A DNA stretch of 64,000 nt from a virus (IMGVR_UViG_3300031555_002005); one strand, 5' to 3'. Shown: positions 28,982 through 55,964, numbered from the stretch's first letter. The notes: generated from the letters alone by a model not told the origin. A program made the numbers and translations.

Positions 28982-28997
28982 AATTAACAATTAAATA

Positions 28998-31006: not shown

Positions 31007-31073
31007 GTGGAGTCCTGGGTAAGACTTAAAACTGCCCATTCAGACATTAACAGCAAACAATAATTACTTGGTT

Positions 31074-31148: not shown

Positions 31149-31176
31149 TTTAAGTGATAATGTCTAGTTTCTATAT

Positions 31177-31254
31177 TGCGGAGTGGACAAGAGGTCTAAG
31201 TCGCCAGCCTCATAAGCTGGAGGTCGCTGGTTCGAATCCAGCCTCACGCAACCA
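31177..31254 (+). tRNA. tRNA-like with CAU anticodon arm; acceptor stem imperfect (possible pseudo-tRNA or mis-parse)
   Basis: CCAGC-CTCATAA-GCTGG; T-arm GCTGG-TTCGAAT-CCAGC; acceptor pairs only 5 of 7. Confidence 0.3.
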
Positions 31255-31257
31255 TAT

Positions 31258-31344
31258 GCCGCTGTGGTGGAATCGGTAGACACCAGGGACTTAAAATCCC
31301 TTGCTGACAACAGCGTACGAGTTCGAGTCTCGTCAGCGGCACCA
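31258..31344 (+). tRNA. tRNA-Leu (UAA), CCA encoded
   Basis: Acceptor GCCGCTG/CAGCGGC; anticodon loop CTTAAAA; long variable arm. Confidence 0.8.
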
Positions 31345-31379
31345 TAAAAAATATTGGCACTTTGAAAGGAGAAATTAAA

Positions 31380-31538
31380 ATGCCTGTATTTTATATTTTA
31401 GTCATTCTCGCAGCGTGTCTGTTGTGGTTCTTACTAGCTTTTATGTTTAAGCCAATGGGAAAGCTTGGACATAGAATCTGGAAAGATGCAGTAGATGCAA
31501 TGAATGAGGATGATGAAAACGAAAACAAAAAGGAGTAA
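31380..31538 (+). CDS. small membrane protein (52 aa)
   Basis: AAGGAGAAA RBS; hydrophobic N-terminus. Confidence 0.5.
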   Translation: MPVFYILVILAACLLWFLLAFMFKPMGKLGHRIWKDAVDAMNEDDENENKKE

Positions 31539-31544
31539 AAACAA

Positions 31545-32465
31545 ATGAGAAAAGGTAGTATTGGCGCAATTCTTCTGGCATTTCTGATCTTTGGTGGACT
31601 GCTTCTATGTCTAGCATGCACAGAAAAGATTCCGACTGGTTATGTTGGTGTTGTTTACAACATGAGCGGTGGCGTAGATGGTGAAGTGCTTTCCCAGGGC
31701 TTCCATATCGTAGCACCCACTAAGAAGGTAACCACTTATTCTGTAGGACTAGAGCAGAGTTATCTGTCTTCTGAAGATGTTGGCGACTCCCCGAAGGATG
31801 AAAGTTTCAACATTCCTACTTCTGATGGTAAGACTGTCCGTGTAAATCTAGAATTCTCTTATCGTTTTGATTCCGAGCGTGTTGCAGAAACCTTTACTAT
31901 GTTTAAGGGTAAGTCTGGTGAAAACATTAAGGAAACCTTTATTAAGCCCAAGGTAATGGCATGGACTCAGGAAGTTTCCGCAAAGTATCCTGTTACAGAC
32001 ATTTTTGGTGACAAGCGTACTGCTATCAATGCAGAGCTAGACATTTATCTGCGTGAAAAGTTTGCACCTTATGGCATTATTATTGACACTGTAAACTTTA
32101 CTGACATTTCTGTTGACAATGAAACTGCCGCAGCAATTCAGAAGAAGGTTAATGCACAGCAGGAACTAGAGCTTGCAAACATTGAAGCAGAAACTGCAAA
32201 GATTCAGGCCCAGAAGGACAAAGAGGTTGCACGTGTTCAGGCAGAAAAGGACAAGGAAGTTGCCGCTATTAAGGCAGAGCAGAAGATTATTGCAGCCGAA
32301 GCAGATGCCGAGGCACTAAGAATTGCATCTGAAGCAGAAGCAGAAGCAAACCGTGAGATCGCAGCTTCTCTGACTCCTCAGCTAATCGAGAAGATTAAGT
32401 ATGAGCAGTGGAATGGTCAGATGCCCAAGGTCACTGGTGGCAGTTCTATTGTAAGTATTGATTAA
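31545..32465 (+). CDS. SPFH/band-7 (prohibitin/HflK-like) membrane protein
   Basis: N-terminal TM; SPFH core; Ala/Glu-rich coiled-coil repeats. Confidence 0.7.
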   Translation: MRKGSIGAILLAFLIFGGLLLCLACTEKIPTGYVGVVYNMSGGVDGEVLSQGFHIVAPTKKVTTYSVGLEQSYLSSEDVGDSPKDESFNIPTSDGKTVRVNLEFSYRFDSERVAETFTMFKGKSGENIKETFIKPKVMAWTQEVSAKYPVTDIFGDKRTAINAELDIYLREKFAPYGIIIDTVNFTDISVDNETAAAIQKKVNAQQELELANIEAETAKIQAQKDKEVARVQAEKDKEVAAIKAEQKIIAAEADAEALRIASEAEAEANREIAASLTPQLIEKIKYEQWNGQMPKVTGGSSIVSID

Positions 32466-32485
32466 AACTAAATTGAGGTAACACA

Positions 32486-32749
32486 ATGAAGAAGAACAAG
32501 CAGGATATTCTCACTCTAAAGACTCAGGAATATGCATCTGCGGCAAAGGAAGCAGAAAATGCAGTGTCTATGGTTTCTACTGCTATGAATCGTCTAAAGG
32601 CAGCAAACCATAGAATGGAAAGCAACATGAAGGACATTCGAGAGTATTGTACCAACATGATGGCTATTCATGATCAGATGGGCAAGGATCATGCCCACAA
32701 TGAAGCAGTTATTTCCAACTTTTCTAAGCTGCTATGCATTGAAGAGTAA
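32486..32749 (+). CDS. hypothetical protein
   Basis: GAGGTAA RBS. Confidence 0.55.
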   Translation: MKKNKQDILTLKTQEYASAAKEAENAVSMVSTAMNRLKAANHRMESNMKDIREYCTNMMAIHDQMGKDHAHNEAVISNFSKLLCIEE

Positions 32750-32756
32750 TTAAATA

Positions 32757-32780
32757 TAGGGGTGTTTTACACCCCTAAAA
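32757..32780 (+). terminator. rho-independent terminator
   Basis: AGGGGTG-TTTTA-CACCCCT. Confidence 0.6.
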
Positions 32781-32858
32781 TATTAATAACAGGCTCATAT
32801 TATTTACAACAAAATGCAAGTTCGAGTCTTAAATAAATTTTAAGCGGGTGACAAGAAC

Positions 32859-33704
32859 TTGAAAAAATTTCATATCATTTGTGCACTAATATTGATTATT
32901 ACATTAATTATTGGTTGTGCACATGTACCAAATAATAATAACATTTCAAATAATATAATAGAAACAACAGTTGTTGAAACTGAAATTCCAGCAACAACAG
33001 AAGCAGAATACACTTTCTTTAATCCAGATAGCATATTTTCATATGAATATATTTATGATGGAGAAATTATTCCACATATTTTATTTACGCCTTCAATAAG
33101 TGATGAAAGTAGACCAAAGCCATTAATTGTATGGCTACATGGAACTGGCGAAAGAAATGCAAATAAGCTAGATTTTTTACTATCTGGTCTACCTTTAACA
33201 ATCAACATGTGGTTAACTGATGGATTTGATGCTTATGTTCTATGTCCACATCTAACTGGTAAATGGAATATTAGCGTTTGGAATTACATTTATTCAGCAG
33301 ATAATTTAAAATTATTATTGGATAAATTTATCAGTGAACATAATGTAGACACAGGCAATATTGTTATTGTTGGTCACAGCTTAGGCGGTCAAGGCGCACT
33401 ATATATGGCACATCAGTTGCCAGAGTATTTTTCTAAATGCGTTGTTCTTAGTGGATATCCAGCAGGAATAGATATTTCAGAAATCAAAATACCTACTATC
33501 GGATATGTTGGACAATATAACTGTGGAGAAAGCCGTGACAGCATTAATTATATGATGAACTATTTCGCCCCAGTTTTCGGAGAAGAAAATACATTTAGCA
33601 TTCCAACTTCTCATGGTAAATTACCATTTGTAGTTTTCAATCAGGATGTTGATGATAATAATAGATCAGATGTTATTGAATGGATGTTTGATGGCATTGA
33701 TTAA
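32859..33704 (+). CDS. lipoprotein alpha/beta-hydrolase (esterase-like)
   Basis: Lipobox LIIGC; GHSLGG nucleophile elbow; TTG start. Confidence 0.6.
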   Translation: MKKFHIICALILIITLIIGCAHVPNNNNISNNIIETTVVETEIPATTEAEYTFFNPDSIFSYEYIYDGEIIPHILFTPSISDESRPKPLIVWLHGTGERNANKLDFLLSGLPLTINMWLTDGFDAYVLCPHLTGKWNISVWNYIYSADNLKLLLDKFISEHNVDTGNIVIVGHSLGGQGALYMAHQLPEYFSKCVVLSGYPAGIDISEIKIPTIGYVGQYNCGESRDSINYMMNYFAPVFGEENTFSIPTSHGKLPFVVFNQDVDDNNRSDVIEWMFDGID

Positions 33705-33707
33705 TAT

Positions 33708-33792
33708 GCAGGTGTGTATGGAATGGTAGACAGGGTAGACTCAAAATCTACTGGCATATGCCGTGTGGGTTCGAATCCCACCACCTGCACCA
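33708..33792 (+). tRNA. tRNA-Leu (CAA), CCA encoded
   Basis: Acceptor GCAGGTG/CACCTGC; anticodon loop CTCAAAA; long variable arm. Confidence 0.75.
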
Positions 33793-33957
33793 AATCCCAA
33801 AGCTGACAGAGCGCAGGGGTGAACTTGATGATCCCGTCAGCAGGGCCCGAGCTAAGCCGGGAAGGAAAGCGGCGCTTTTCGGTGAAGTGCGACGCCAAGG
33901 ATATATCTGGAGAACTGTGTTCTCAATTTAAGGGTTATATCAAACCGAATTAAATAT

Positions 33958-34049
33958 CCAGCAATGGCGAAAATGGTAAACGCAGTCCGCAGTAGGATTG
34001 CCTGATAGCGCAGTCGGGCATGATAGTTCAAGTCTATCTTGCTGGGCCA
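33958..34049 (+). tRNA. tRNA-like with an enlarged 25-nt anticodon loop; CCA encoded
   Basis: Acceptor CCAGCAA/TTGCTGG; D-arm GCG..CGC; stem GTCCG/CGGGC separated by 25 nt; T-arm GATAG-TTCAAGT-CTATC. Confidence 0.35.
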
Positions 34050-34476: not shown

Positions 34477-34505
34477 GACAAAATGGTAAAATGTGTTATA
34501 ATAAC
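34477..34505 (+). promoter_or_regulatory. sigma-A-type promoter
   Basis: TTGACA-N16-TATAAT, then the conserved element. Confidence 0.55.
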
Positions 34506-34535
34506 AATACAAATTTAATGAAGGGAGTATACATA

Positions 34536-35630
34536 GTGACATATCTTGACTACGCTGCCACAACGCCAATATGTGATGCAGCACAGCAAACAATAATTAA
34601 GTATTTAAATTACTTTGGCAACCCATCAAGTTCTCATGAGTTTGGAAGACAATCCAGACTGTTAATCGAAGATGCACGTGAAAGAATTGCCCAATGTATC
34701 AACGCAGATCCTAGTGAAATTTACTTCACGTCTGGAGGTTCTGAAGCAAATACACTTGCGTTAAACAATAGGAGATATTCAGCGTCTTCAAAATTTGAGC
34801 ATCATTCTGTGGTGTCAAATTGGCCAAAAATTTCTATTACAAAAGATGGATTTATCAAGGTACATAAACTAAATAATATGATCTCAGAATGGTGGGAGGT
34901 TCCATTTGATGTTATGTCTTGCATGTATGTGAACAATGAAATTGGAACAATACAGCCAGTAAAAGAGCTATCTACTGTAGCGCATAGATATGGTATTTTA
35001 CTTCACACTGACGCAGTTCAGGCAATGCCTTATGTACACATAGACGTTAAAGATTTGGGTTGCGATATGTTATCTGCAAGTGGGCATAAGTTTGGTGCAC
35101 CAAAAGGCATAGGATTTTTATATGCAAATTCTCGTTCAAGAATCAAGCCGATCATTAATGGAGGCAAGCAAGAAAACTCTATGCGCCCAGGTACTGAAAA
35201 TATTTTAGGCATTCTGGCCATGGCTTCGGCGCTTGAAGACGCTGTGGAACATATGGATGAACGTAATGAGCGCATTAAATCTTTAAGAGACAGTCTGCTT
35301 GATAAGTTACTTAAAATTGATGGAGCGCATCTTAATGGCTCACTTGAAAATCGCATTCCAGGCAACATCAATATCAGATTTGATGGGGTTTACGGTTCAA
35401 GACTAGTTACATTGTGCAGTTTATATGGAGTTTATATTTCCGCAGGATCTGCATGCAACGAAGGCACCACTGAGCCAAGCCACGTGCTTAAAGCAATTAA
35501 TCTATCAGACGAAGAAGCATTAAGTAGCGTAAGAATTACTTTGGGGCATCAAACTACCGAAGAAGATGTTAACATAGCAGCAGATATTATTACAGCACTA
35601 GTTAAAAGGATTCGTTCAGATGAATCTTAA
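34536..35630 (+). CDS. cysteine desulfurase (NifS/IscS-like, class V aminotransferase)
   Basis: SGHKFGAPKG PLP-lysine motif; GAAGGGAG RBS with GTG start at 34536. The track start at 34491 overlaps the promoter. Confidence 0.75.
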   Translation: MTYLDYAATTPICDAAQQTIIKYLNYFGNPSSSHEFGRQSRLLIEDARERIAQCINADPSEIYFTSGGSEANTLALNNRRYSASSKFEHHSVVSNWPKISITKDGFIKVHKLNNMISEWWEVPFDVMSCMYVNNEIGTIQPVKELSTVAHRYGILLHTDAVQAMPYVHIDVKDLGCDMLSASGHKFGAPKGIGFLYANSRSRIKPIINGGKQENSMRPGTENILGILAMASALEDAVEHMDERNERIKSLRDSLLDKLLKIDGAHLNGSLENRIPGNINIRFDGVYGSRLVTLCSLYGVYISAGSACNEGTTEPSHVLKAINLSDEEALSSVRITLGHQTTEEDVNIAADIITALVKRIRSDES

Positions 35631-40123: not shown

Positions 40124-41509
40124 ATGGCTTATACAGCATTTATTACAAGAATTAAGAATCTGCGTACACACCCTAAGGCGGATCGACTGCAGATGGGTGA
40201 GTGCTTTGGTAACACTGTAATTGTCTCTCTGGAATACGAGGACAACCAGCTTGGCATTTACTTCCCTTCTGATGGACAGATTAGCACTGCATTTGCAGAA
40301 GCAAATAACCTGCTTCGCAAGAAGGATGAAAACGGCAATAACATTGGCGGTTACATGGATCCCGACAAGCGCAACGTCACTGCTATTAAGCTTCGTGGAG
40401 AAAAGTCTGATGGCCTGTTCCTGCCTCTGAAGTCTCTTGAGCCTTTTGGTGACATTACCACTCTGCGTGAGGGTGACCGAATTGATAACTTTAATGGACA
40501 TGAGATTTGCTGCAAGTATGTACCTTTTAAGCGTGAACGTACTGCCGCAGGTGGAGCAGGAAAGCGCATTAAGCGTAGAGCTAAGAGAAGCATTGCACCT
40601 CTGTTTTATGAGCATATGGACACTGAGCAGCTCGCCTACAATCTGGCAGCTTTTAAGCCCGGTGACGAGATTGAAATCACTCTAAAGATGCATGGCACTT
40701 CTCAGCGAACTGCACACCTACCTGTGTTTAAGGACTACAAGCGCACAATCTGGGACAAACTATTCCGTCGTGAAGGTACTCCTGTTTATGATTGGGGTTA
40801 CGTCTCTGGCACTCGTCGTACTGTTCTAGAGAATTTTGAAGGTGGATATTATGGATCTAACGAGTTCCGTGAAGCACATTCTAAGTTCTTTGAGGGCAAG
40901 CTGTGGAAGGGCGAAGAGGTCTACTACGAGGTGGTTGGTTTCACTCATACTGGCGCACCTATTATGTCTACGGCAGACAATAAGAAGCTGAACGACAAGG
41001 AGTTTGTTAAGCAGTATGGAAAGACTACTACTTTCTCTTATGGTTGTGCCCCTGATGGTGTAAATTCCGCAGATGGAGTTATTCCTCAGTCTGATATCTA
41101 CGTTTACCGTATGACAATGACCAATGAAGATGGTGATGTTGTCGAGTACACTCCTGATTTCATGCGCTATCGTTGTGAGCAGATGGGTGTTAAGACTGTC
41201 CCTGTGATGTGGAAGGGCACTATTCCTTACGCAGATTGGCTTGAAGCTAACACGTGGGAAAGCGCAGGGCATTATGCAATTACTCGTGCAGAAAAGTACT
41301 ATGATGGTCCCGACCCTATTGGCAAGACTCATGTCCGTGAAGGCGTTGTAGTTCGTATTCTGAACCGTCCTAAATTCTGTGCATACAAGCATAAGAACTG
41401 GTCTTTCAAGGCTCTTGAAGGAATTGTTAAGGTTGAAGCTGAGGCTCCTGATATGGAAGAAGCCGATGGCATTAATGAGGAAGTGATGACTGATGAATTT
41501 TCACAGTGA
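40124..41509 (+). CDS. RNA ligase (Rnl2/Rnl5-type nucleotidyltransferase) fused to an N-terminal EMAP/Trbp111-type tRNA-binding OB domain
   Basis: N-terminus HPKADRL...SDGLF resembles a tRNA-binding OB fold. Ligase motif I LKMHGTS (KxHG), motif IV EGVVVR, motif V KHKNWSFK. Confidence 0.7.
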   Translation: MAYTAFITRIKNLRTHPKADRLQMGECFGNTVIVSLEYEDNQLGIYFPSDGQISTAFAEANNLLRKKDENGNNIGGYMDPDKRNVTAIKLRGEKSDGLFLPLKSLEPFGDITTLREGDRIDNFNGHEICCKYVPFKRERTAAGGAGKRIKRRAKRSIAPLFYEHMDTEQLAYNLAAFKPGDEIEITLKMHGTSQRTAHLPVFKDYKRTIWDKLFRREGTPVYDWGYVSGTRRTVLENFEGGYYGSNEFREAHSKFFEGKLWKGEEVYYEVVGFTHTGAPIMSTADNKKLNDKEFVKQYGKTTTFSYGCAPDGVNSADGVIPQSDIYVYRMTMTNEDGDVVEYTPDFMRYRCEQMGVKTVPVMWKGTIPYADWLEANTWESAGHYAITRAEKYYDGPDPIGKTHVREGVVVRILNRPKFCAYKHKNWSFKALEGIVKVEAEAPDMEEADGINEEVMTDEFSQ

Positions 41510-42302
41510 TGAATGGATCATGCGGAATGTTCGAGAGCACTACAACGAGGCTCTCGAACACTTCCCCGAAGATAGAATTGTAGGTATCTTTTATCAGGGC
41601 AGCGGTAACTACGGCCTTGACTATGAAGGTTCTGATGTAGACACCAAGCTGATTGTCACGCCAACCTTTGAAGATATTGCAATGAATAAAAAGGCAGTAA
41701 GTACAACTCATATCAGAGAGAATGAAGAGCACATCGATTTTAAGGATATTAGACTCTATATCCAGACTTTCAGAAAGCAAAACTTGAACTTCCTAGAAAT
41801 CCTGTTTACTAAATATGCAATTATCAATCCTATGTATAAAGATGAATGGGATAGACTTGTAAAGGCTCGTGAGAAAATTGCACGCTATGCACCTGTACAG
41901 GCTATTAAGTCTATGAAGGGCATTGCAAAAGAAAAGTATCATGCAATGGAACATCACTATCCTGCACGAATGGCATGGATTGAGAAGTTTTCTTACGATC
42001 CGAAACAACTGCATCATCTACTGAGAGTTAATGAATATATCAGCAGATACATTGACGGCGAATCATATGAAGATTGCTTGATTTCAAAAATGCCAGACTA
42101 TTTACAGTCAGTAAAACTTGGTTTTCACAACCTGGATGATGCTCGCATGATTGCTAATTGGGCTATTGGCTGTATTGATAAAATGTGCGATAAGTATCTA
42201 GAGACTTGTTCAACTGAAGTTGATAAAGATGTTGATGTTCTACTTGATGATGTGCAGTACAACATTATGAAGATTGCTATTAAGAAAGAAATTGGTGATT
42301 AA
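41493..42302 (+). CDS. Pol-beta-superfamily nucleotidyltransferase
   Basis: GSGNYGLDYEGSDVDTKL NTase signature. Confidence 0.6.
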   Translation: MNFHSDEWIMRNVREHYNEALEHFPEDRIVGIFYQGSGNYGLDYEGSDVDTKLIVTPTFEDIAMNKKAVSTTHIRENEEHIDFKDIRLYIQTFRKQNLNFLEILFTKYAIINPMYKDEWDRLVKAREKIARYAPVQAIKSMKGIAKEKYHAMEHHYPARMAWIEKFSYDPKQLHHLLRVNEYISRYIDGESYEDCLISKMPDYLQSVKLGFHNLDDARMIANWAIGCIDKMCDKYLETCSTEVDKDVDVLLDDVQYNIMKIAIKKEIGD

Positions 42303-42303
42303 A

Positions 42304-43200
42304 ATGAACAGACCTAGTTTAATTTTACTTGTCGGAATTCCCGGCTCAGGCAAAACTACATACGCAGAAAAATATATTAAAGAGAATCCCAATACAGTAC
42401 ATCTTTCCTCCGACAAGATTCGTGAAGAACTTTGGGGTAATGAAGCTACTCAGGGCGACAACAACAAAGTGTTTTCTCTGATGCAGTCTAGAGCAATTGA
42501 AGCACTGAATAACGGACAGTCTGTGGTATATGACGCTACGAACATTACAAGAAAAGACAGATCTTACATTATCACTCTTTGCCCTAAGTTTGCTAAGATT
42601 GAGTGCCATATTATTTGGGCACCTATTGAGACTTGCATCGAGAGAGACGCTGCCAGAGAACGCACTGTTGGCAAGGAAGTCATTGATAGAATGCTTAAGC
42701 GATTCCAGGCACCTTATTATGATGAAGGGTTTGATGGTATCTATATTCGTTATTCTGATGACAATTTTAATGCAAAAGAATACAGTAAAAAGATAGTTAT
42801 GAACATGGATATCCCTCATGATAACCCTCATCACACTTTGAATATTTTAGATCATTGTGCTGAAGCAGGATCATATTTTTATGAAAGAGGTCAGTATGAC
42901 GAAGTGTGGGTGGCAGCTATGTATCATGACATAGGAAAACCATACGTAAAAGCATTTGTTGATAGCAAAGGTAATCCTTGTGAGAATGCTCATTACTACC
43001 AGCATCAATGTTTGGGTTCATATATGTATTATGGAATGACTAGTGAAATTGGTGGTACTAGTGACACATGGGTAAAAATTGCTTGGCTGATTTCCACACA
43101 TATGGATCCTTATCTAAATACGAAATATTACAATAGACTTCCTGCTTATCTAAAGAAACAGGTAGATTTGCTTCACGAGGCGGACAGGAATGCACATTAA
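42304..43200 (+). CDS. pnk: polynucleotide 5'-kinase fused to a C-terminal HD-domain phosphoesterase (RNA end-healing enzyme)
   Basis: Walker A LLVGIPGSGKTTYA as in T4 Pnk; C-terminal H...HD motifs (HHTLNILDH, MYHDIGK). Confidence 0.7.
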   Translation: MNRPSLILLVGIPGSGKTTYAEKYIKENPNTVHLSSDKIREELWGNEATQGDNNKVFSLMQSRAIEALNNGQSVVYDATNITRKDRSYIITLCPKFAKIECHIIWAPIETCIERDAARERTVGKEVIDRMLKRFQAPYYDEGFDGIYIRYSDDNFNAKEYSKKIVMNMDIPHDNPHHTLNILDHCAEAGSYFYERGQYDEVWVAAMYHDIGKPYVKAFVDSKGNPCENAHYYQHQCLGSYMYYGMTSEIGGTSDTWVKIAWLISTHMDPYLNTKYYNRLPAYLKKQVDLLHEADRNAH

Positions 43201-43260: not shown

Positions 43261-44049
43261 ATGCCAAATAAAATTGATAAAAAAACAGAAAAAGATATAA
43301 TTGATTTATATAATAATGGATACGGGACTATGGAAATATCACAAAAATGTGAAATTCATAGAGCAACTGTTCAAAGAATTTTAAAAAGAAATAATATAGA
43401 TTTACGTAAACGTACACCTGTACATTATGACATTCATTTCTTTGACGAATACAATGAAAATAGTTGTTATTGGGCAGGGTTTATTGCAGCAGATGGATAT
43501 GTGAGATCCGACAGAGCAGCTGTAACAATACATTTAGCAAGTGTAGATTATGAGCATTTGTTAAAACTTGCCAAATTAACCAATTATGAAGGGAACGTCA
43601 AACTCAATAAGAATGATTGTTATATTACATTTGCTGGCAAATGGTTTCAAGATGCTCTAGATAAAAATTTTAATATACGTCCAAATAAAACATTTGATAT
43701 TACAATTCCAGACAAAATTCCAGAAGATATGGTTAAACATTTTATTCGTGGTTACTTTGATGGCGATGGTAGTGTAACTCATACAAACAATTATTTACGC
43801 ATTAATTTCACTTCTGGATCTGAAACTATGCTTCAACAGATTATGAATTTTGTATATAACAATAATATATTAGTTCGAAATAATACTGGAATGCCACCAA
43901 TCCATCAATATGTAATTAACTATTCTTGTAGTGTTGCATATAAAATTCTAGACATATTATATGGATGTTCATCAGACTTAACAAGACTGGATAGAAAATA
44001 TCAATTATATTTAAGTTATAAAAAATCTAAAAGTCCATTGGCAAATTAA
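43261..44049 (+). CDS. LAGLIDADG homing endonuclease with N-terminal HTH
   Basis: GFIAADGYV and GYFDGDGSV motifs. Confidence 0.75.
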   Translation: MPNKIDKKTEKDIIDLYNNGYGTMEISQKCEIHRATVQRILKRNNIDLRKRTPVHYDIHFFDEYNENSCYWAGFIAADGYVRSDRAAVTIHLASVDYEHLLKLAKLTNYEGNVKLNKNDCYITFAGKWFQDALDKNFNIRPNKTFDITIPDKIPEDMVKHFIRGYFDGDGSVTHTNNYLRINFTSGSETMLQQIMNFVYNNNILVRNNTGMPPIHQYVINYSCSVAYKILDILYGCSSDLTRLDRKYQLYLSYKKSKSPLAN

Positions 44050-44069
44050 TTTGATTGGAGAATAATATT

Positions 44070-44903
44070 ATGGATACAAGTGAACTAGCAAAAAGAATGA
44101 AAGACTATGAGTCTGTGCCAAAAGCAAGGCTGATGAGGCGTTGTCCCGTGGCATGTCGTATTGACGGAAAGGCTCACCATAGCTTTACAAAAGGATTCAA
44201 AAGACCGTTTGACGAAGTTTATATTAAGTCGATGCAGAAAACAGCAAAATATTTATGTGAAAATGTACAAGGTGTTGTGCTGTCATATCAGCAGTCAGAT
44301 GAAATTACTTTGATTTTAATTGACTATAAAGAATTCAACACATCTCCATATTTTGACTACGAAATTCAAAAGCTGTGTTCAATTCTAGCTTCTATGGCAA
44401 CTATGGCGTTCAATAAGTTTTTTGCAAACGAATGTTGTCAGTGGTTTGAAAATAACATTGATTGGAGTGACCTAGACGTTGTCGCAGCAGATGAAGATAT
44501 CAAGAAGTTGTTTAATGCCTATACCAAGGCTTGTGAAAAAGGTGCAATGTTCGATGCTAGAGTATTTAATATCCCTAAGGAAGAAGTCATGAACCTTCTA
44601 TATTGGAGACAGTTAGATGCTACTAGAAACAGCATTCAAATGGTTGGGCAGGCAAACTTCTCTCATAATCAGCTTCACGGTAAGAACTGTAGCGATATTC
44701 AGGATATGTTAATGTTCGAAAAGGGCATCAACTGGAACGATTATCCGACTCACCTAAAGCGTGGCAGCTGTTGTATTAAGAAACCTTTCAAGATTAATGA
44801 GGGCACCGAGCAGGAAACAGTTCGTAACAAATGGGTAATTGACACTGAGATACCTATTTTCACGCAAGATAAAGATTATGTAAATAAATTGATTTTTATT
44901 TAA
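44070..44903 (+). CDS. Thg1-like protein (tRNA 3'-5' nucleotidyltransferase / tRNA 5'-end repair)
   Basis: RIDGKAHHSFTKGFKRPFD matches the Thg1 signature RIDGRNFHKFT...FEKPND. Confidence 0.65.
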   Translation: MDTSELAKRMKDYESVPKARLMRRCPVACRIDGKAHHSFTKGFKRPFDEVYIKSMQKTAKYLCENVQGVVLSYQQSDEITLILIDYKEFNTSPYFDYEIQKLCSILASMATMAFNKFFANECCQWFENNIDWSDLDVVAADEDIKKLFNAYTKACEKGAMFDARVFNIPKEEVMNLLYWRQLDATRNSIQMVGQANFSHNQLHGKNCSDIQDMLMFEKGINWNDYPTHLKRGSCCIKKPFKINEGTEQETVRNKWVIDTEIPIFTQDKDYVNKLIFI

Positions 44904-46911: not shown

Positions 46912-46917
46912 TTTATA

Positions 46918-46950
46918 CGGGTCACGGCAAAACTGTGGCCCGTTTTTTGT
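46918..46950 (+). terminator. rho-independent terminator
   Basis: CGGGTCAC...GTGGCCCG followed by a T6 run. Confidence 0.6.
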
Positions 46951-46964: not shown

Positions 46965-46993
46965 TTGACAATACAAAATTAATGTGGTATAAT
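46965..46993 (+). promoter_or_regulatory. sigma-A-type promoter with the conserved element as spacer
   Basis: TTGACA-atacaaaattaatgtgg-TATAAT. Confidence 0.6.
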
Positions 46994-47021
46994 AGCGATG
47001 CTAGAAAGGAGTTGGAATTAT

Positions 47022-48749
47022 TTGAAATATAAACTAATAGGAAGCAATGATACAAATAATATAATTAAAACAATATTAAACAACAGAGGAATAGAAGACT
47101 GGAATGGGTACATTAACCTTAGTAAAGCTCCACGAGACACATATGATAACTTGGATAATATTGCAAAAGCTGTTTTTGCGTTTGATTTGCACTATGTACA
47201 GAAACATCCAATTGCAATTCTTGTGGACAATGACGTTGATGGTGTTTGTAGTAGTACATTAATGTACAGGTTTATTAAGACACTTGATCCAGATTACGAT
47301 GTTAGAATGTATGTTCACAGAAAAAATAAGAGTCATGGACTAGATGGAGACTTCGACATTGACAGTGATATTAAGTTGTTAATTGTGCCAGATGCAGGAT
47401 CCAACGATGTTGCAGAGCATAAAAGACTGTATTACGAGCTTGGAATTGATTGTTTGTGTTTAGACCATCACCAAGTAACTGTTGATACAAGCAAGAGCCC
47501 AGCGATCATTGTTAACAATCAAACAAGTGATAGATATGAAAACAAAGGATGCTGTGGCGCATCAGTGACACTAGAATTCTGCAGAGCACTAGAAGAATTT
47601 TATTGGGAAGACGTATGCGACGATCTGTTAGACCTTGCCGCTGTGGCAAATGTATGTGACATTATGCCAATCACTGAATTTGAAACTAGAGCAGTAATTA
47701 ATGAGGGCTTGTCTAATATAAACAACAAGATGCTACAAGAAATCATTAAAGCTCAAGACTTCTCCATGAAAGGTATTGTGAGTCCACATACAGTAGGTTT
47801 TTATGTTGGCCCTCTAATCAATGCTTTTATTCGCATGGCAACTTTTGAAGAGCGTCAACTACTTGTTCGAGCATTTTGCGAAGATGAGTCTGAAACTTTT
47901 TCGTACACAAAACGTGGAGAATCACTACCAACTGAAGAGAACATTTATGAACATGTTGTTCGACTAATGAAGTCATATAAGGGCAAACAAGACCGACAGA
48001 GACAAAATACTTTACCTACGCTTGTAAACAAGGGTAAAGAGTGTGATGGTAACGTTGCACTTATTGATGCCACTGGCATTATTGACACATCTCTAACAGG
48101 AGTTGTGGCAATCAAGGTTTCAGAATCTTTAAACAAGCCAACATTACTTTTACAACAAAGAAATGACAAAGTGTATGGAGGAAGTGGCAGAGTATTTGAT
48201 AACTGTCCAATAGAAGACTTCAGAGCACTTGTTGATGAATGTCCTTACACCACCTTGGCACAAGGGCACCCAGGTGCATTCGGAATTGAGATTCCAGTTG
48301 AGAATATAGGACTTGCAAGAGATTGGCTTAACGAGCGGCTTGCGAATGTTGATATGGATAAAGTCTACAACGTTGACTTCGAAATCAACGCAGAAAATCT
48401 TTCTATTCCAATGTTCCAAGCGCTTGACCAAAACAAAACACTTTGGGGACATAACGTTAACGAACCTTTGTTCGCAATTAATAATCTACACATATCTTCT
48501 GAGAACTCTAGAATCTGTGGCAAAAGTCAAAATACAATTCAGATTTATGATGAAGTAGCAAACGTAAAGTATGTTATGTTCTTCTGCAATGGAGCAGAGG
48601 AACTGTATCAATGGATTAGTAATAACTGGGGAGATGATAAAGCAGTTATTACTGTTATTGGTACACTTGGATTGAGCTTGTATGAAGGTAAGCTAGATAG
48701 TCAAGTTATTATTAAGGATGCAAGAATAGAAAAAACAATACAAAATTAA
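47022..48749 (+). CDS. DHH-family phosphoesterase (RecJ-like ssDNA exonuclease)
   Basis: DNDVDG and CLDHHQ DHH motifs; probable TTG start after AAAGGAG. Confidence 0.65.
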   Translation: MKYKLIGSNDTNNIIKTILNNRGIEDWNGYINLSKAPRDTYDNLDNIAKAVFAFDLHYVQKHPIAILVDNDVDGVCSSTLMYRFIKTLDPDYDVRMYVHRKNKSHGLDGDFDIDSDIKLLIVPDAGSNDVAEHKRLYYELGIDCLCLDHHQVTVDTSKSPAIIVNNQTSDRYENKGCCGASVTLEFCRALEEFYWEDVCDDLLDLAAVANVCDIMPITEFETRAVINEGLSNINNKMLQEIIKAQDFSMKGIVSPHTVGFYVGPLINAFIRMATFEERQLLVRAFCEDESETFSYTKRGESLPTEENIYEHVVRLMKSYKGKQDRQRQNTLPTLVNKGKECDGNVALIDATGIIDTSLTGVVAIKVSESLNKPTLLLQQRNDKVYGGSGRVFDNCPIEDFRALVDECPYTTLAQGHPGAFGIEIPVENIGLARDWLNERLANVDMDKVYNVDFEINAENLSIPMFQALDQNKTLWGHNVNEPLFAINNLHISSENSRICGKSQNTIQIYDEVANVKYVMFFCNGAEELYQWISNNWGDDKAVITVIGTLGLSLYEGKLDSQVIIKDARIEKTIQN

Positions 48750-48767: not shown

Positions 48768-49937
48768 ATGATTCATTCTTATCAGAAACCTTTGAGTGGC
48801 AAAAGTGTTGGTGTAGTATTTGGCTCTTTTGCCCCTCTACACCAAGGTCATCTGGACTGCATTATGAGGGCAAAGAAAGAAAATGATGGCGGCGCAATTG
48901 TAATCGTTTGCGGATTCGACGGTGACAAGGGTGGTAAAATGATGCCACTAAAGCGAAGATACAGATATGTTAGAGAGTTCTTCTCTGATGATGATTTGGT
49001 TGCTGTATATGCAATTGATGACGGTGAGATTGGCGCAGAGCCTTATCCTAATGGTTGGGAAAAGTGGCTCGACGAGTTTTGGAATATTTGGGAAAAGGCC
49101 ACTGAGCTATCTTGGAAAGAAACAGATGGTCCAGAAGGTTTTGAAACTAGTGTTAGTTTGGAACGTCCTAAGCGCCACTGGTATGCAGGTGACCCTAATT
49201 ATGTGAGTGACCTCGTTGAACGTGGCGAAGAAGCAACTCTGCTTGACCGTGTAGCAGACAATCCTATTTGTGCAACAATGATTCGTCAGAATCCTATTAA
49301 GCACTGGGATAAAATTACTTTCCCCTTCCGTCGTCTGTTTAGCCACAACATTCTAATTTGTGGCACAGCATCTGAAGGTAAATCAACTCTTACAACGGAT
49401 CTTGGTAAGTATTTCAATGCGCCTTATAGCTATGAATGGGCACGTGACTATATGAGAGAAAGTTGCGTTATTGACTGGGAACTAGATGGCGCAGATTATA
49501 TGGCTTTCCTTGAAGGCCAGTACAACCTAAACAAGCAGATGATTAATTCTCCTGGCAATCATGGCATTTTCTTTGCTGATTCTGACTCTATGGTAACTAG
49601 AATGTATGCAGAGTATTATGCTCAGGATGAAACTTGTGCGCTTACTCAAGAAGAATTTGAACGAGTAGCAGTAATGGCCGATGAAATTACACGTAAATCT
49701 CGTTGGGACAAGATCTTCTTACTGGCACCGCATGGTGTATTTGTTGACGACCATGAAAGATATATGGCTCATTCTGGCATGAAGGAACGGCAAGAGCTAT
49801 TTGAAATCCTATGCAGAAACATTAAGGAATCTGGAAACTGGGACAAGGTTACAATTCTAACTGGAAACTATTACGAAAATTTCATGGCAATTGTAAGTTA
49901 TGTAAAAGATCGAATTGAGAAAGGCATGGCTGATTAA
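48768..49937 (+). CDS. nadR: NadR-like bifunctional NMN adenylyltransferase / ribosylnicotinamide kinase
   Basis: GSFAPLHQGH (HxGH nucleotidyltransferase) N-terminal domain; C-terminal P-loop GTASEGKST. Confidence 0.7.
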   Translation: MIHSYQKPLSGKSVGVVFGSFAPLHQGHLDCIMRAKKENDGGAIVIVCGFDGDKGGKMMPLKRRYRYVREFFSDDDLVAVYAIDDGEIGAEPYPNGWEKWLDEFWNIWEKATELSWKETDGPEGFETSVSLERPKRHWYAGDPNYVSDLVERGEEATLLDRVADNPICATMIRQNPIKHWDKITFPFRRLFSHNILICGTASEGKSTLTTDLGKYFNAPYSYEWARDYMRESCVIDWELDGADYMAFLEGQYNLNKQMINSPGNHGIFFADSDSMVTRMYAEYYAQDETCALTQEEFERVAVMADEITRKSRWDKIFLLAPHGVFVDDHERYMAHSGMKERQELFEILCRNIKESGNWDKVTILTGNYYENFMAIVSYVKDRIEKGMAD

Positions 49938-50429
49938 ATGGCTAAAATGTATTTAATGTGCGGTTGCAGTGGCGCAGGAAAGACAACATTTGCAAAAGAG
50001 TTTGCCAAGAAAAATAGCCTTAAGTATTTAGGTATTGATGATTTCTACGCACTAGTCAATGGTGATGAATGTATACACACTAATTCATTTGAAGTGTGGA
50101 TTGAATTTTATAAAGCAATTCATGAAGCAGAGATTAATAATCTTGACGTAGTTATTGATACAAATGCAATTACTCGTTCTCATCGTGAACAGTTTATTGA
50201 TTGGTTTCCAACTTTTGAACATCATCTAATTTACATTAAAGCTACACATGACCTAAGAAAGCAGAACAATAAATCTCGTCGCAGACAAGTTCCAGACGAT
50301 GTAATGGATAAAATGCGTGACCAATTTCAAATACCTTTGTTGAGTGAAAAGTTTAAAACAATCACAATAATTAGAAACGTTGATAATAATTTTAGAGTAC
50401 CTATTGTATTAAAAGGAGAAGCAAAATGA
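49938..50429 (+). CDS. P-loop kinase (AAA_33/zeta-like)
   Basis: MCGCSGAGKTT Walker A. Confidence 0.5.
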   Translation: MAKMYLMCGCSGAGKTTFAKEFAKKNSLKYLGIDDFYALVNGDECIHTNSFEVWIEFYKAIHEAEINNLDVVIDTNAITRSHREQFIDWFPTFEHHLIYIKATHDLRKQNNKSRRRQVPDDVMDKMRDQFQIPLLSEKFKTITIIRNVDNNFRVPIVLKGEAK

Positions 50430-51118
50430 AGAATTGGGTATTGAAGAATTTTTGGAATGGATACACTCTTTTCGAGAAGCTGTTTATGCTAGTAGCAGTA
50501 GCAATGCAGGTGATTGTCTTTATGATTACACCTGATAGTTGGCTAAATATCGTAGCTGGCCTTGCTGGTGTAGTGTCTGTTATTATGTGCGCCAAGGGTA
50601 GAACCATGTTCTATTTTATTGGCTTTATTCAGACGGTAACGTATCTGGTTCTTGCATGGCAGAATAGATTTTATGGCGAAGTGCTTGAAAACATTTTCTA
50701 CTTTGTAACTATGATTTTGGGCATTTTTGAGTGGAAGAAGAATGAAGTCACCAATGCTGACGGTACTGAGGATGTTATTGCCAAGAAGTTCAGTCCCACT
50801 CAGTGGATTCTGTCTATTGCTGGCACTGTAATTGCAACGATGGCTATGGGTTACTGGTTAGACGGTATTGGTAGCGCACAGGCATATACAGATGCAGCTA
50901 CTAATGTTATGGCTATCTTTGCTCAGCTTTTAATGGTTTGGAGATTCCGTGAGCAGTGGATTTGGTGGATCGTAATTGATCTGTTCTGCATCAAGATGTG
51001 GTTCGTTGCAGGTAATTGGTCCATGGTTGCAATGTACATTGTTTGGACTGTAAATGCAATTTATGGTTGGATTAATTGGAGTAAGTTGAACAAGATTCAG
51101 AGCGTTAAGGAGGCTTAA
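50426..51118 (+). CDS. pnuC: PnuC nicotinamide riboside transporter
   Basis: About 230-aa polytopic membrane protein, Trp-rich, with PnuC-like layout, immediately after NadR. Confidence 0.6.
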   Translation: MKNWVLKNFWNGYTLFEKLFMLVAVAMQVIVFMITPDSWLNIVAGLAGVVSVIMCAKGRTMFYFIGFIQTVTYLVLAWQNRFYGEVLENIFYFVTMILGIFEWKKNEVTNADGTEDVIAKKFSPTQWILSIAGTVIATMAMGYWLDGIGSAQAYTDAATNVMAIFAQLLMVWRFREQWIWWIVIDLFCIKMWFVAGNWSMVAMYIVWTVNAIYGWINWSKLNKIQSVKEA

Positions 51119-51120
51119 AT

Positions 51121-51567
51121 ATGACACTAGAAAAGCTACAGTCTGAAATGGTTCAGGCTATGAAGGACAAAGATAAACTACGCAAGTCCGTACTTTCTGG
51201 ACTTGTGGACGCAGTAAAGAAAGCATCTATGACCAATAATGGTCGTATTGAAATTACAGAGCAGCTTGTTGATGAAGTTCTGTTAAAGTATAAGAAAATG
51301 GTTCAAGAACAGATTGACACTTGTCCTGCAAAGCGCATTGAAACTCTTGAAGAGTATAAGGCGCAGATGGCAGTTGTTACCGAATTTGCACCTACTCTGA
51401 TCACTGATGAAACTGAGATTCATTATCTCATTCTTGACATTGTTAATAATGAACATGAATTCTCAAAATCAAATAGAGGCGTTCTTATGAAGATTCTTGC
51501 TCCTGTACTGAAGGGTAAGGCAGATATGAGTATTGTTAATAAGGTACTTGGAGGAATGTTGCAGTGA
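51121..51567 (+). CDS. GatB/YqeY-domain protein
   Basis: N-terminal LQSEMVQAMKDKDKLRKSVL resembles the YqeY family. Confidence 0.55.
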   Translation: MTLEKLQSEMVQAMKDKDKLRKSVLSGLVDAVKKASMTNNGRIEITEQLVDEVLLKYKKMVQEQIDTCPAKRIETLEEYKAQMAVVTEFAPTLITDETEIHYLILDIVNNEHEFSKSNRGVLMKILAPVLKGKADMSIVNKVLGGMLQ

Positions 51568-53617: not shown

Positions 53618-55573
53618 GTGAATAAAATTGATAGAATTAAAGAACTCGTAGAGCTGCTAAATCATTATCGAAATGAATATTATAACAACTCTCGCAGTGA
53701 AATCTCAGATTTTGAATATGACCAGTTATTTGACGAACTTGTTAGTCTAGAATCAGAAACTGGTTTTATTATGGCAGTGTCACCAACACAAACAGTTGGT
53801 TATGAGGTTAAGTCAGAACTGAAAAAAGTGAAACATAATCATCCTATGTTGTCACTTGATAAAACCAAAAGCGTAGATGATGTACTTTCATTCCTTGATG
53901 GAAAAGATGGCGCAATTATGGCCAAGATGGATGGGCTGACATGTTCGCTACGATATTTGAATGGAGAGCTTGTTTCTGCTGAAACGAGAGGCAATGGTGA
54001 GGTCGGAGAGGATATTTTGCACTGTGCAAAAACTATTAAAAATATTCCTCTTAAAATTAATTGCACAGAAGAAATCATTATTGATGGCGAAGTGATTATT
54101 ACATATGATGACTTTGAAAAAATCAATTCCACATTACCAGACGATCAAAAATACAAACATCCACGAAACCTTGCGTCAGGATCTATTAGACAGCTTGATA
54201 GCAATATTGCCGCACAAAGAAACATGAAGTTCATTGCGTGGAAAGTTATTAAAGGTTGTAGTAATAATTCTTTTATACGTAGGTTGATGTTTGCAAGTGG
54301 ACTTGGGTTTAGCACTACTCCACTAATTCCACTGCCGACGATTTTTCAAAATAAAGAGCAGATTCAAATTGCGATTGAACAAATTAAGATTTGGTCTAAA
54401 GAAGAAGGATATCCTATTGACGGATGTGTGTTTGGATATGACGATGTAGCTTATGGTAAATCACTTGGTGCAACAGGACACCATCTGCGTAGCCAACTTG
54501 CTTTTAAGTTTTATGATGAGTTATATCCTACAAGATTACAATATATTGATTGGACAATTGGTAAGTCTTCTCAGCTAACACCAACAGCAGTATTTGATAC
54601 TGTAGAAATTGATGGAGCCGATGTGTCACGTGCATCACTACATAATATCAGTATTATTAAAAATCTTGGACTGACTAATGGTTGTACTGTAAATGTATTT
54701 AAGGCCAATCAAATTATCCCACAGATTGACTCTTGTGAAAATGATGGCAGTGGTGATATTGAAATCCCTATGACTTGCCCGATTTGTGGAGGAGCAACTG
54801 CTATTAAAAGAGATAATGAATCTGAGGTGCTAATCTGTACAAATTCTGAGTGTGCGGGCAAGAAGCTTGCGCAGTTTACTCACTTTGTTTCTAAGAAAGG
54901 TATGGATATTAAAAATTTATCTGAGGCAACACTTCAAGATTTGATCTCACATGGATTTATCCACAACTTCAAAGACATTTACCATCTTGCTGACCATAAA
55001 CAGCAACTTATTCGTCTAGATGGATTTGGCAAAAAATCAGTGGAAAATCTGCTAAAATCTATTGAAGATTCGAGGAATGTGAAGCTTGAGAATTTTATTG
55101 CTGCACTAGGCATTCCAAACATTGGACTATCAGCGTCTAAAACTATATCAAAACACTTCAGTGGCAGCTATAAAGAATTAATGAATACATATTTTTACTG
55201 GCGTTTTGATTGGACAGCTCTTGAAGACTTTGGAGATGTTATGGCAGAAAGTATCAATAAGTATTTGTGTAATCATTTTGAAGAAATTAATGAATTGGCC
55301 GATGAAATGAATTTTATACTTCCAGAGGAGCATAATGATAATTCTCTTGAAGGATTAAAGTTTTGCATAACTGGCAGTTTCAGTCAGCCTAGAGATGGCC
55401 TCAAGAAGCAGTTAGAGAGCCGTGGAGCCAAGTTTATCAGCTCCGTGAGCAAGAATCTGGACATTCTTTTCGCAGGAGAGAAGGCTGGCAGCAAGCTTAC
55501 AAAGGCACAACAGCTTGGTGTTAGAGTTGCAAATGAAGAAGAATTAATGAAGATGCTTGGAGAACATATATGA
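53618..55573 (+). CDS. ligA: NAD-dependent DNA ligase
   Basis: KMDGL adenylation motif; CPICGG zinc finger; HhH; C-terminal BRCT-like; GTG start. Confidence 0.85.
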   Translation: MNKIDRIKELVELLNHYRNEYYNNSRSEISDFEYDQLFDELVSLESETGFIMAVSPTQTVGYEVKSELKKVKHNHPMLSLDKTKSVDDVLSFLDGKDGAIMAKMDGLTCSLRYLNGELVSAETRGNGEVGEDILHCAKTIKNIPLKINCTEEIIIDGEVIITYDDFEKINSTLPDDQKYKHPRNLASGSIRQLDSNIAAQRNMKFIAWKVIKGCSNNSFIRRLMFASGLGFSTTPLIPLPTIFQNKEQIQIAIEQIKIWSKEEGYPIDGCVFGYDDVAYGKSLGATGHHLRSQLAFKFYDELYPTRLQYIDWTIGKSSQLTPTAVFDTVEIDGADVSRASLHNISIIKNLGLTNGCTVNVFKANQIIPQIDSCENDGSGDIEIPMTCPICGGATAIKRDNESEVLICTNSECAGKKLAQFTHFVSKKGMDIKNLSEATLQDLISHGFIHNFKDIYHLADHKQQLIRLDGFGKKSVENLLKSIEDSRNVKLENFIAALGIPNIGLSASKTISKHFSGSYKELMNTYFYWRFDWTALEDFGDVMAESINKYLCNHFEEINELADEMNFILPEEHNDNSLEGLKFCITGSFSQPRDGLKKQLESRGAKFISSVSKNLDILFAGEKAGSKLTKAQQLGVRVANEEELMKMLGEHI

Positions 55574-55936: not shown

Positions 55937-55964
55937 TTGACAAACTAGAAATTTCTGCTATAAT
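55937..55964 (+). promoter_or_regulatory. sigma-A-type promoter
   Basis: TTGACA-N16-TATAAT, then the conserved element. Confidence 0.55.

Follow-up and report, generated by a model that had tools for sequence, protein, structure and literature searches.

We analyzed a 64,000-nucleotide stretch of viral DNA (IMGVR_UViG_3300031555_002005; hereafter the window, with positions counted from its first letter) and found that its region 48768–51567 is probably a nicotinamide riboside (NR) salvage module of the NARP3 type. The module belongs to a large, tRNA-rich, uncultured phage and is predicted to form one unit, driven by the host RNA polymerase (RNAP), with the genes of the exonuclease RecJ and the ligase LigA. 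Four tightly packed genes lie on the plus strand: a NadR-like gene (48768–49937, 389 aa), a gene for a 163-aa AAA_33 P-loop kinase (49938–50429), which is a candidate alternative NR kinase, a gene for a PnuC-type NR transporter (50426–51118, 230 aa), and a gene for a YqeY/GatB-C-terminal-like protein (51121–51567, 148 aa). An initial annotation made from the DNA alone had described a four-gene NAD (nicotinamide adenine dinucleotide) salvage region with exactly these coordinates, and its open reading frames (ORFs) and domain calls were correct by profile searches. Several independent metagenome contigs carry the block with proteins that are 100% identical, so it is no assembly oddity. The core NadR-PnuC pair is already known; what is new here is a recurrent accessory kinase with a D-x-x-Y motif and a related split architecture.

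In the proposed pathway, external NR would diffuse in through PnuC and be trapped as nicotinamide mononucleotide (NMN) by the ribosylnicotinamide kinase (RNK) half of the NadR-like protein, after which the NMN adenylyltransferase (NMNAT) half would convert NMN to NAD+. That PnuC and a bifunctional NadR rebuild NAD+ from NR had been proposed in the initial annotation, and homology supports these predicted activities. The same annotation regarded the NadR-PnuC combination as unreported, which does not hold. Iyer et al. 2022 placed NadR among the phage NAD+ synthesis domains, Osterman et al. 2024 predicted that phage NadR genes, usually in an operon with PnuC, may form a further NAD+ reconstitution pathway (bioRxiv 10.1101/2024.02.11.579819), and Yan et al. 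(Sci Adv, 12 Aug 2026) named the pair NARP3 (PMC13464706). In the latter work, the transporter Bas30_87 imports NR, the enzyme Bas30_86, the structure of which was solved, turns NR into NAD+, and together they restore both NAD+ levels and the ability of phages to plate on cells with Sir2-HerA or DSR1 (PMC13464706). The combination is also present in hundreds of GenBank phages, where 401 records contain a NadR-like gene and 816 contain a PnuC-like gene. The two genes adjoin in all four phage records inspected, with Lak-A1, Lactobacillus phage Bromius, and the T5-like BASEL phage GreteKellenberger as examples.

The NadR-like protein consists of an NMNAT domain (approximately residues 12–185) followed by an RNK domain (approximately residues 186–389). 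Both domains passed their Pfam cutoffs, as the initial annotation had anticipated, with CTP_transf_like scoring 27 bits at residues 17–82 and AAA_28 scoring 62 bits at residues 195–367. The model TIGR01526 (nadR_NMN_Atrans) matched at 191.3 bits (E 2.4e-56) over profile positions 1–317 of 325, and phrog_3462, annotated as "nicotinamide-nucleotide adenylyltransferase", matched with an E value of 3e-60. The nearest solved structure is NadR from L. lactis (PDB 6GYE), which aligns over residues 7–365 with an E value of 4e-61. Three other solved NadR-type proteins also align over the full length but are more distant, namely 8X7F (E 7e-22), 9X6F (E 6e-20; a 357-aa phage-type NMNAT entry named "nicotinamide-nucleotide adenylyltransferase"), and 1LW7 from H. 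influenzae (E 9e-19). The helix-turn-helix (HTH) domain is absent, as NF005988, the model for trifunctional NadR, is matched only from profile position 60 onward. The HxGH adenylyltransferase motif and the C-terminal Walker A kinase motif, which had been claimed earlier, were both found in the alignment. In the NMNAT domain, the motifs are GSFAPLHQGH (HxGH, residues 19–28) and ICATMIR (ISxTxxR, residues 167–173), and in the RNK domain they are GTASEGKST (Walker A, residues 199–207), IFFADSD (Walker B, residues 267–273), and VDDHERYM (lid, residues 326–333). All five motifs are intact, are kept across ten phage homologs, and match in position those stated for L. lactis NadR (PMC7221760).

The membrane protein is PnuC-like by both profile and topology, in line with the initial annotation. 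PF04973 matched at 152.1 bits (cutoff 27.3) and TIGR01528 at 141.8 bits (cutoff 42.45), and residues 4–225 align with residues 6–235 of N. mucosa PnuC (4QTN) with an E value of 6e-41. Eight hydrophobic segments were identified, corresponding to the seven-transmembrane (TM) Pnu core plus an N-terminal extra helix. The WxxW(x)3D motif of the Pnu family is present as WIWWIVID at residues 178–185, and the gate tryptophans at the ends of TM3 and TM7 are both kept (GIFEWKK and YGWINWSKL). It is very improbable that this protein carries a non-NR substrate, namely another Pnu-family vitamin or nucleoside, and that the module is no NR route at all. Thiamine and riboflavin carriers do belong to the Pnu family, and the helix-5 glutamine that coordinates NR in N. 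mucosa PnuC (Q94 in Bas30_87) is replaced by methionine in the window PnuC, the Lak phages, and close relatives. Nevertheless, the PnuC-specific equivalog model TIGR01528 is passed by approximately 100 bits, the WxxW(x)3D motif and the gate residues are intact, and a NadR or NMNAT gene accompanies the PnuC homolog in every case.

The window pair has the layout of NARP3, with the two genes on the same strand and split only by the 163-aa ORF. Like Bas30_86 and Bas30_87 of Escherichia phage TrudiRoth, it is a co-oriented pair of an HTH-less NadR (NMNAT + RNK) and PnuC, with the ISxTxxR, Walker A/B, and lid motifs in common, the same predicted chemistry (NR to NMN to NAD+), and a large, tRNA-rich phage as the carrier. 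The two differ in several respects. The T5-like versions are only approximately 26% (NadR) and 30% (PnuC) identical to those of the window, no kinase gene separates the NARP3 pair, and the host of NARP3 is in Enterobacteriaceae whereas that of the window phage is probably in Bacillota. The window NadR more closely resembles that of L. lactis and carries the canonical HxGH, as do most phage NadRs, whereas the T5-like NARP3-type NadR of GreteKellenberger (L040, 2489–3544) has TRGH at this position. Among phages in GenBank, the closest homologs (36–42% identity) are those of Bromius and the Prevotella Lak megaphage, in which NadR and PnuC are adjacent with no kinase in between; the order in Bromius is PnuC-NadR-ADP-ribose pyrophosphatase (Nudix), and the Lak records are unannotated. 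The nearest full-length solved structures are those of the bacterial salvage proteins 6GYE and 4QTN. L. lactis NadR also lacks the HTH, N. mucosa PnuC also has eight TM helices with an N-terminal extra helix, and the logic of facilitated diffusion followed by trapping by a kinase is shared. Unlike bacterial salvage, the window module is phage-encoded, has a consensus promoter of the phage early type, and lies in one unit with replication genes.

A few observations weigh against a straightforward assignment of the core pair. The score of the full-length but divergent NadR-like protein (191.3 bits) is below the equivalog cutoff of TIGR01526 (341.15 bits). Mutagenesis of Bas30_86 showed that K10, F11, S37, E80, P84, G89, F110, S112, D115, V139, I141, E230, and D275 are needed. 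When these residues were mapped through the T5-like homolog bas26_0086, in an uncertain alignment at approximately 26% identity, F11, G89, I141, and D275 were identical in the window protein and E80D and F110Y were conservative, whereas K10S, S37C, P84E, S112G, V139N, E230N, and D115 (a gap) differed. Likewise, the published NR-contacting residues N45, Q94, and N180 of Bas30_87 correspond to G, M, and D in the window PnuC when mapped through bas26_0087, again in an uncertain alignment, at approximately 30% identity. The mutagenesis residues of Bas30_86 and Bas30_87 vary among other functional homologs too.

Synteny further defines the core of the module. We compared twelve IMG/VR relatives, the NadR of which is 64–83% identical to the window NadR, and found NadR followed by an adjoining PnuC in all twelve. 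NadR-PnuC is the conserved core. The kinase gene lies between the two genes in one relative and 3 kb upstream in one other; because it is placed in this way in so few relatives, the kinase is optional or dispensable in this lineage. The YqeY protein is a genuine member of its family (PF09424, 65.5 bits with a cutoff of 27, positions 2–139 of the 143-position profile), and an NCBIfam search of it returned no match. It had been grouped with the module in the initial annotation, which the synteny does not bear out, as YqeY adjoins the module only in near-identical contigs of the same phage. One of the twelve relatives has a 30%-identical copy approximately 0.8 kb downstream, and the other eleven have none. 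Phage YqeY homologs are rare, with 13 records found, mostly in large tRNA-rich phages. This sparse and unrelated distribution, together with the synteny, led us to reject YqeY as a part of the module, and it is probably an unrelated neighbor.

The expression signals place the module in a predicted unit of approximately 9 kb. The unit is predicted to start at a perfect sigma-70/sigma-A promoter on the plus strand (46965–46993; TTGACA-N17-TATAAT with an extended -10 TG), just downstream of an intrinsic-terminator-like hairpin (46917–46943, plus strand; 11-bp stem and T-run) that closes the upstream unit, and the next perfect consensus promoter, at 55937–55964 on the plus strand, starts the following unit. 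In between, the predicted order is RecJ, NadR, kinase, PnuC, YqeY, three unknowns, LigA, and one unknown. The RecJ-like single-stranded DNA exonuclease (46998–48749, plus strand; Pfam DHH + RecJ_OB, phrog_2484 E 6e-144) provides context and lies outside the NAD module. The module genes are translationally coupled: a Shine-Dalgarno (SD) sequence, AAAGGAG, lies 5' of the NadR ATG, the kinase ATG abuts the NadR stop codon TAA, the kinase stop and PnuC start overlap in GGAG-N9-ATGA, and the YqeY ATG is preceded by AAGGAGG-N7. The ligase (53618–55573, plus strand) is of the LigA type and NAD-dependent, as had been stated in the initial annotation, with DNA_ligase_aden (PF01653) at 169.8 bits together with OB, HhH, and BRCT domains (PF03120, PF12826, and PF00533). 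The ligase Ia and Zn-finger models scored below their cutoffs, and direct reading of the translation revealed KxDG (AKMDG) and a domain-Ia-like segment, EYYNNSRSEISDFEYD ('YY...D..YD'). It is thus an NAD+ consumer within the predicted transcription unit of the module.

Because the module appears to share one unit with RecJ and an NAD+-dependent ligase, it may supply NAD+ during replication once the host RNAP transcribes it from the promoter at 46965, and by analogy with NARP3 it could offset NAD+-depleting abortive infection in the natural host. This counter-defense logic, suggested in the initial annotation, finds support in the published experiments on homologous phage operons (PMC13464706), where NAD+ synthesis from NR and the defeat of Sir2-HerA and DSR1 were established for a homologous pair rather than for that of the window. 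We consider it rather doubtful that the module serves instead as housekeeping auxiliary metabolism, providing NAD+ to LigA and other consumers of the phage itself in an NR-rich gut or rumen and not primarily counter-defense. The predicted co-transcription with the ligase and RecJ from one promoter fits such a role, large gut phages often carry NAD gene clusters regardless of known defenses (PMC11662467), and related loci (L037 and L038, described below) with whole Preiss-Handler plus NR clusters and an NrtR-like regulator resemble general metabolism. On the other hand, homologous operons neutralize Sir2-HerA and DSR1 (PMC13464706), NR salvage is useful precisely while NAD+ is being destroyed, and the housekeeping role is compatible with counter-defense, the sequence not separating the two.

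The 163-aa kinase between NadR and PnuC has the fold of a polynucleotide kinase (Pnk). AAA_33 matched at 60.7 bits, and the best sequence matches are PSTK (E 2e-8), T4 Pnk (E 7e-5), and the kinase domain of C. thermocellum Pnkp (CthPnkp; E 8e-4). The AF2 model (pLDDT 95.4) adopts the Pnk fold with the catalytic Asp after strand 2. Shared with the Pnk clade (T4 PseT, CthPnkp, PSTK) are the P-loop GxxGxGKT, the catalytic Asp34 (equivalent to D35 of T4), the DTN motif, and the RxR lid. Unlike this clade, the 163-aa kinase has a Tyr in place of an Arg, an extra invariant NGD[E/P] loop, and no phosphatase or HD domain, and its neighbors are NAD-salvage genes rather than RNA ligases. The signature of its own clade is D34-x-x-Y37...N41-G42-D43-E44. 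In an alignment with RNA-repair kinases, D-x-x-Y followed by the NGD[E/P] loop is present in every clade member, and Y37 is invariant in two sequence sets (33/33 in set A2 and 20/20 in set A4), whereas D-x-x-R is found in RB18 PseT, PSTK, the Pnk of Bacillus phage Skywalker (encoded beside a tRNA ligase), and kin308, a paralogous kinase in the window. Y37 stands in the place of R38 of T4 Pnk, which we take to bind the 3'-phosphate of the acceptor nucleotide. The loss of this Arg therefore suggests that the acceptor, for example a free nucleoside, lacks a phosphodiester. The clade is small: of 1.84 billion proteins, those matched at E ≤ 1e-30 amount to 57 representative clusters. Cellular relatives of the kinase, sought in 185,579 species genomes, were found only at ≤33% identity, and none of them has the D-x-x-Y/NGD signature or lies beside PnuC or NadR. 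The clade is apparently phage-only.

To learn how often this kinase accompanies NAD genes, we surveyed 15 IMG/VR and 80 metagenome loci together with the earlier ones, classifying the genes by hidden Markov models built from characterized sequences. The 72 signature kinases fall into 39 clusters at 90% identity, 23 of which have NAD-pathway genes within 3 kb. When the count was limited to clusters flanked by 2.5 kb or more on each side (n = 18), 13 were NAD-linked within 3 kb, 11 of them with PnuC; of the remaining five, one neighbors an ADP-ribosylglycohydrolase and the other four have no recognizable neighbor. None of the 12 control kinases from the same scans, comprising the sister D-x-x-Y subclades (NGS/FGD/FGS) and D-x-x-R kinases, has an NAD neighbor. 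Fisher tests of signature kinases against controls gave p = 9e-5 for any NAD gene and p = 6e-4 for PnuC, values in which related loci inflate the independence. The linkage holds across at least six gene orders and down to approximately 25% PnuC identity, often with overlapping stop and start codons, and because it persists through differing gene orders and PnuC divergence it suggests a functional link between the kinase and the NAD genes. The comparison supports, without proving, the inclusion of the P-loop kinase in the module, where the initial annotation had listed it and had stated no reason.

The architectures, with K denoting the kinase, are NadR-K-PnuC, K-NadR-PnuC, K-NMNATonly-PnuC, NadE-HisPhos-K, PncA-K-kin2, and NrtR-NMNAT-PnuC-K-PncA-NMNAT-PncB-NadE. 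In two loci of more distant homologs (L021 and L022), additional small ORFs are present, yet the kinase still lies between NadR and PnuC. Loci of the L025/L028 type encode the kinase, a 165-aa CTP_transf_like protein, and PnuC in succession, with stop and start codons that overlap. Contigs with K-NMNATonly-PnuC include Ga0247611_10000199 (124 kb) and Ga0247611_10000031 (253 kb). The 165-aa proteins correspond to the NMNAT half of NadR, matching TIGR01526 at positions 2–145, phrog_3462 at positions 3–150 of 346, and 9X6F at residues 8–155, and no RNK domain was found within 5 kb of these NMNAT-only proteins. Directly upstream of the trio in L025 lies a gene (4668–5000) for an RNA-repair-associated cREC_REC (cyclic-phosphate-processing receiver) protein. 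A near-complete NAD cluster was found on a jumbo-phage contig (L038; IMGVR_UViG_3300028591_000074, 253.5 kb, positions 2341–8558) and in its near-twin L037, in the order NrtR-like Nudix (with a winged helix), radical-SAM-like, NMNAT-like, PnuC, kinase, PncA-like isochorismatase, NMNAT-like, PncB, and NadE. Both NMNAT-like proteins of this cluster are of the NadR type and NMNAT-only. L038 alone has a NUMOD3 homing endonuclease between the second NMNAT-like gene and PncB, and NadE was seen in L037 and lies beyond the profiled stretch in L038.

Pnu transporters work by facilitated diffusion and need a cytoplasmic nucleoside kinase to trap the substrate (PMC5749112). Since the 163-aa kinase is encoded beside PnuC and an RNK-less NMNAT in some phages, it reads most simply as the NR kinase of a "split NadR". 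We tentatively propose that the kinase evolved from the Pnk fold into a kinase of NR, or of pyridine nucleosides, through loss of the Arg and gain of the Tyr and the NGD[E/P] loop. It is possible, again short of an even chance, that the kinase replaces the RNK half in some phages as a 'split NARP3' (kinase + NMNAT-only + PnuC) and supplements a complete NadR in the window. In the latter case, its most likely substrate would be an unphosphorylated pyridine nucleoside, either NR itself or a closely similar compound, and it would thereby act as a second, NadR-independent trap for PnuC, perhaps one that is insensitive to feedback. Gene neighborhood and a single residue suggest that the NR-kinase reading may hold. 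A degenerate RNK half as the cause of the extra kinase was considered and ruled out, because the RNK motifs are intact and do not differ between relatives that have the kinase and those that lack it. An accessory enzyme has a precedent in NARP1-AP (bioRxiv 10.64898/2026.01.28.702374), a core two-gene NAD+ reconstitution operon to which some phages have added a further enzyme. NARP1-AP differs in that it belongs to the ADP-ribose (ADPR) recycling pathway, its accessory enzyme is a Macro-domain ADPR-1''-phosphate phosphatase, and the role of that enzyme was proven experimentally, whereas that of the window kinase is deduced. Literature searches turned up no description of a stand-alone kinase in phage PnuC/NadR clusters or of the present kinase in NAD clusters.

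Several results count against the kinase acting on NR. The association with NAD genes is only suggestive (p = 0.09) once loci are collapsed to distinct architectures, and the sister D-x-x-Y subclades have no NAD neighbors. NadR and PnuC are directly adjacent, with no intervening kinase, in 10 of the 12 IMG/VR relatives. A search for fusion (Rosetta-stone) partners of the kinase found none: the N-terminal portion of phrog_6931 proved not to be an NMNAT, and no further Pfam domain was identified in P0245, P0265, P0272, or P0283, which are long members of the clade. The RNK half of the window NadR is apparently intact, which makes a second NR kinase look redundant; the extra kinase might differ in its regulation or in its substrate, for example by using nicotinic acid riboside. 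Some clade kinases adjoin RNA-related genes (cREC_REC, PTH2, and Thg1), and the nearest relatives of the kinase in sequence and structure are RNA- and tRNA-end kinases.

The last two points also speak for an alternative that we consider somewhat unlikely, in which the protein takes no part in NAD metabolism. It would then be a conventional 5'-OH kinase of polynucleotides or tRNA that serves RNA repair as a counter-defense against anticodon nucleases, and it would owe its position to the packing of auxiliary genes in phage early regions. This alternative would account for PSTK, T4 Pnk, and CthPnkp being the best matches, for the nearest GenBank phage homologs being annotated as polynucleotide kinases beside tRNA/RNA ligases, for the absence of NAD neighbors in the sister subclades, and for the tRNA-rich nature of the phage, which has 21 tRNAs. 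It is at odds with the invariable Tyr of the clade in place of the Arg that binds the acceptor 3'-phosphate, with the proximity of 13 of the 18 well-flanked clusters to NAD-salvage genes in at least six gene orders, and with the K-NMNATonly-PnuC loci, which would otherwise be without an NR kinase. In addition, the repair role in the window is already filled by kin308 (42274–43200, plus strand; AAA_33 + HD), which lies outside the NAD module near an RNA-ligase-like gene and Thg1, keeps the D-x-x-R motif, and is likely the true RNA-repair kinase of the phage.

A dinucleotide or some other intermediate of the NAD pathway, in place of NR, is an improbable substrate of the kinase; the candidate reactions would be the conversion of NAD+ to NADP+ (as by NAD kinase), an AvrRxo1-like 3'-phosphorylation, and the transfer of phosphate to nicotinic acid riboside or to a derivative of ADP-ribose. 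In clusters that contain every other NAD-synthesis step alongside the kinase, NAD kinase is missing just as NR kinase is, and one locus (L024) has the kinase beside NadE and a His_Phos_1 phosphatase with no PnuC nearby. However, PnuC is the tightest and most frequent partner (11 of 18 clusters) and requires a nucleoside kinase as a trap (PMC5749112), the K-NMNATonly-PnuC arrangement reads as a split NadR, and the similarity of the kinase to AvrRxo1 is far weaker than that to Pnk.

The module adds one more lineage to those with a proven anti-defense strategy, namely a gut/rumen-type phage that probably infects Bacillota and has contigs of up to approximately 173 kb, and it indicates that NARP3-type modules are far more widespread than the picture of "largely Enterobacteriaceae phages" (PMC13464706). 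If the 163-aa protein is an NR kinase, it would represent a third independent origin of this activity, after NadR-RNK and eukaryotic Nrk1, a new enzyme family in NAD metabolism, and an extended NARP3 variant. It would also explain how phages with only NMNAT and PnuC complete the NR route, and it would exemplify the recruitment of an RNA-repair kinase fold to metabolite salvage in the NAD+ arms race. The kinase, NMNAT, and PnuC would then provide a compact cassette for engineering phages or NMN/NAD-producing strains. If the protein is an RNA-end kinase only, the locus is an ordinary NARP3 homolog.

The phage itself also encodes a DnaE-like polymerase and a UvrD/PIF1-like helicase in the window, and related contigs reach approximately 160–173 kb. 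A megablast search of the region against GenBank phages returned no match, so there is no close sequenced isolate among them. The host is probably in Bacillota. A pattern search for perfect TTGACA-N16-18-TATAAT promoters in the window found 15, all on the plus strand, where 0.15 were expected by chance; an SD core lies 5' of 56% of the ORFs compared with 11% in the background; and the closest DnaE is that of Clostridium innocuum phage Amboise (47.5%), with those of Alicyclobacillus and Brevibacillus phages also close. These promoters, SD cores, and DnaE affinities make a Prevotella/Bacteroidota host unlikely, although the nearest GenBank NadR/PnuC homologs in Lak megaphages point to Prevotella. 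A 147-kb contig labeled 'uncultured Prevotella sp. UMGS1762' (L043; USJD01000001.1), which likewise hinted at Prevotella, encodes a kinase similar to kin308 and a Thg1 with 59% identity to that of the window. The contig probably comes from a related phage and was binned into a Prevotella metagenome-assembled genome, and its label conflicts with the Bacillota-type expression signals.

The perfect promoters start at 8116, 10039, 18923, 21663, 22080, 22159, 22575, 27065, 28213, 34475, 35695, 44912, 46965, 55937, and 61706 on the plus strand, and all but the one at 8116 (14 of 15) have the extended -10 TG. A spacer stretch, ATACAAAATTAATGTG, is common to the promoters at 35695, 46965, and 61706, with a two-base variant in that at 8116, which suggests a duplicated promoter cassette. 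The RecJ ATG (46998) lies 4 nucleotides past the -10 hexamer of the promoter at 46965, and an SD-like AAAGGAG follows this ATG at approximately 47005–47011 (region 46988–47020); either the RecJ mRNA is leaderless or the true start is downstream at a non-canonical codon.

Elsewhere in the window, an apparent RNA/tRNA-repair set occupies 40124–41509, 42274–43200, 43261–44049, and 44055–44903. Its members are an RNA-ligase-like protein (weak PF09414 and a PHA02142 OB match), kin308, and a Thg1-like 3'-5' nucleotidyltransferase, with a LAGLIDADG homing endonuclease inserted between the kin308 and Thg1-like genes. Two GIY-YIG/NUMOD3 homing endonuclease genes (12072–12944 and 17548–18603) add to the latter and indicate heavy mobile-endonuclease traffic in the genome. 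A 419-aa ORF at 1208–2467 (RVT_1, 78 bits) was found in this lytic-looking large phage, and the reverse transcriptase it encodes could belong to a diversity-generating retroelement, a retron-like element, or a group II intron. Two adjacent tyrosine-recombinase-like genes (9034–10008 and 10091–11005; Phage_integrase, MrpR N-terminal core-binding) are each preceded by a nearby perfect promoter. The tRNA array spans 22698–34049, where 21 ARAGORN calls are interspersed with ORFs, including one for a 517-aa DUF2828 + DUF7788 protein (29354–30907); three of the calls (23487–23563, 31073–31149, and 33958–34049) have anomalous two-base 'anticodons'. Just past the array lies a gene for a cysteine-desulfurase-like class-V aminotransferase (34491–35630; PF00266, 215 bits), which may be linked to tRNA thiolation.

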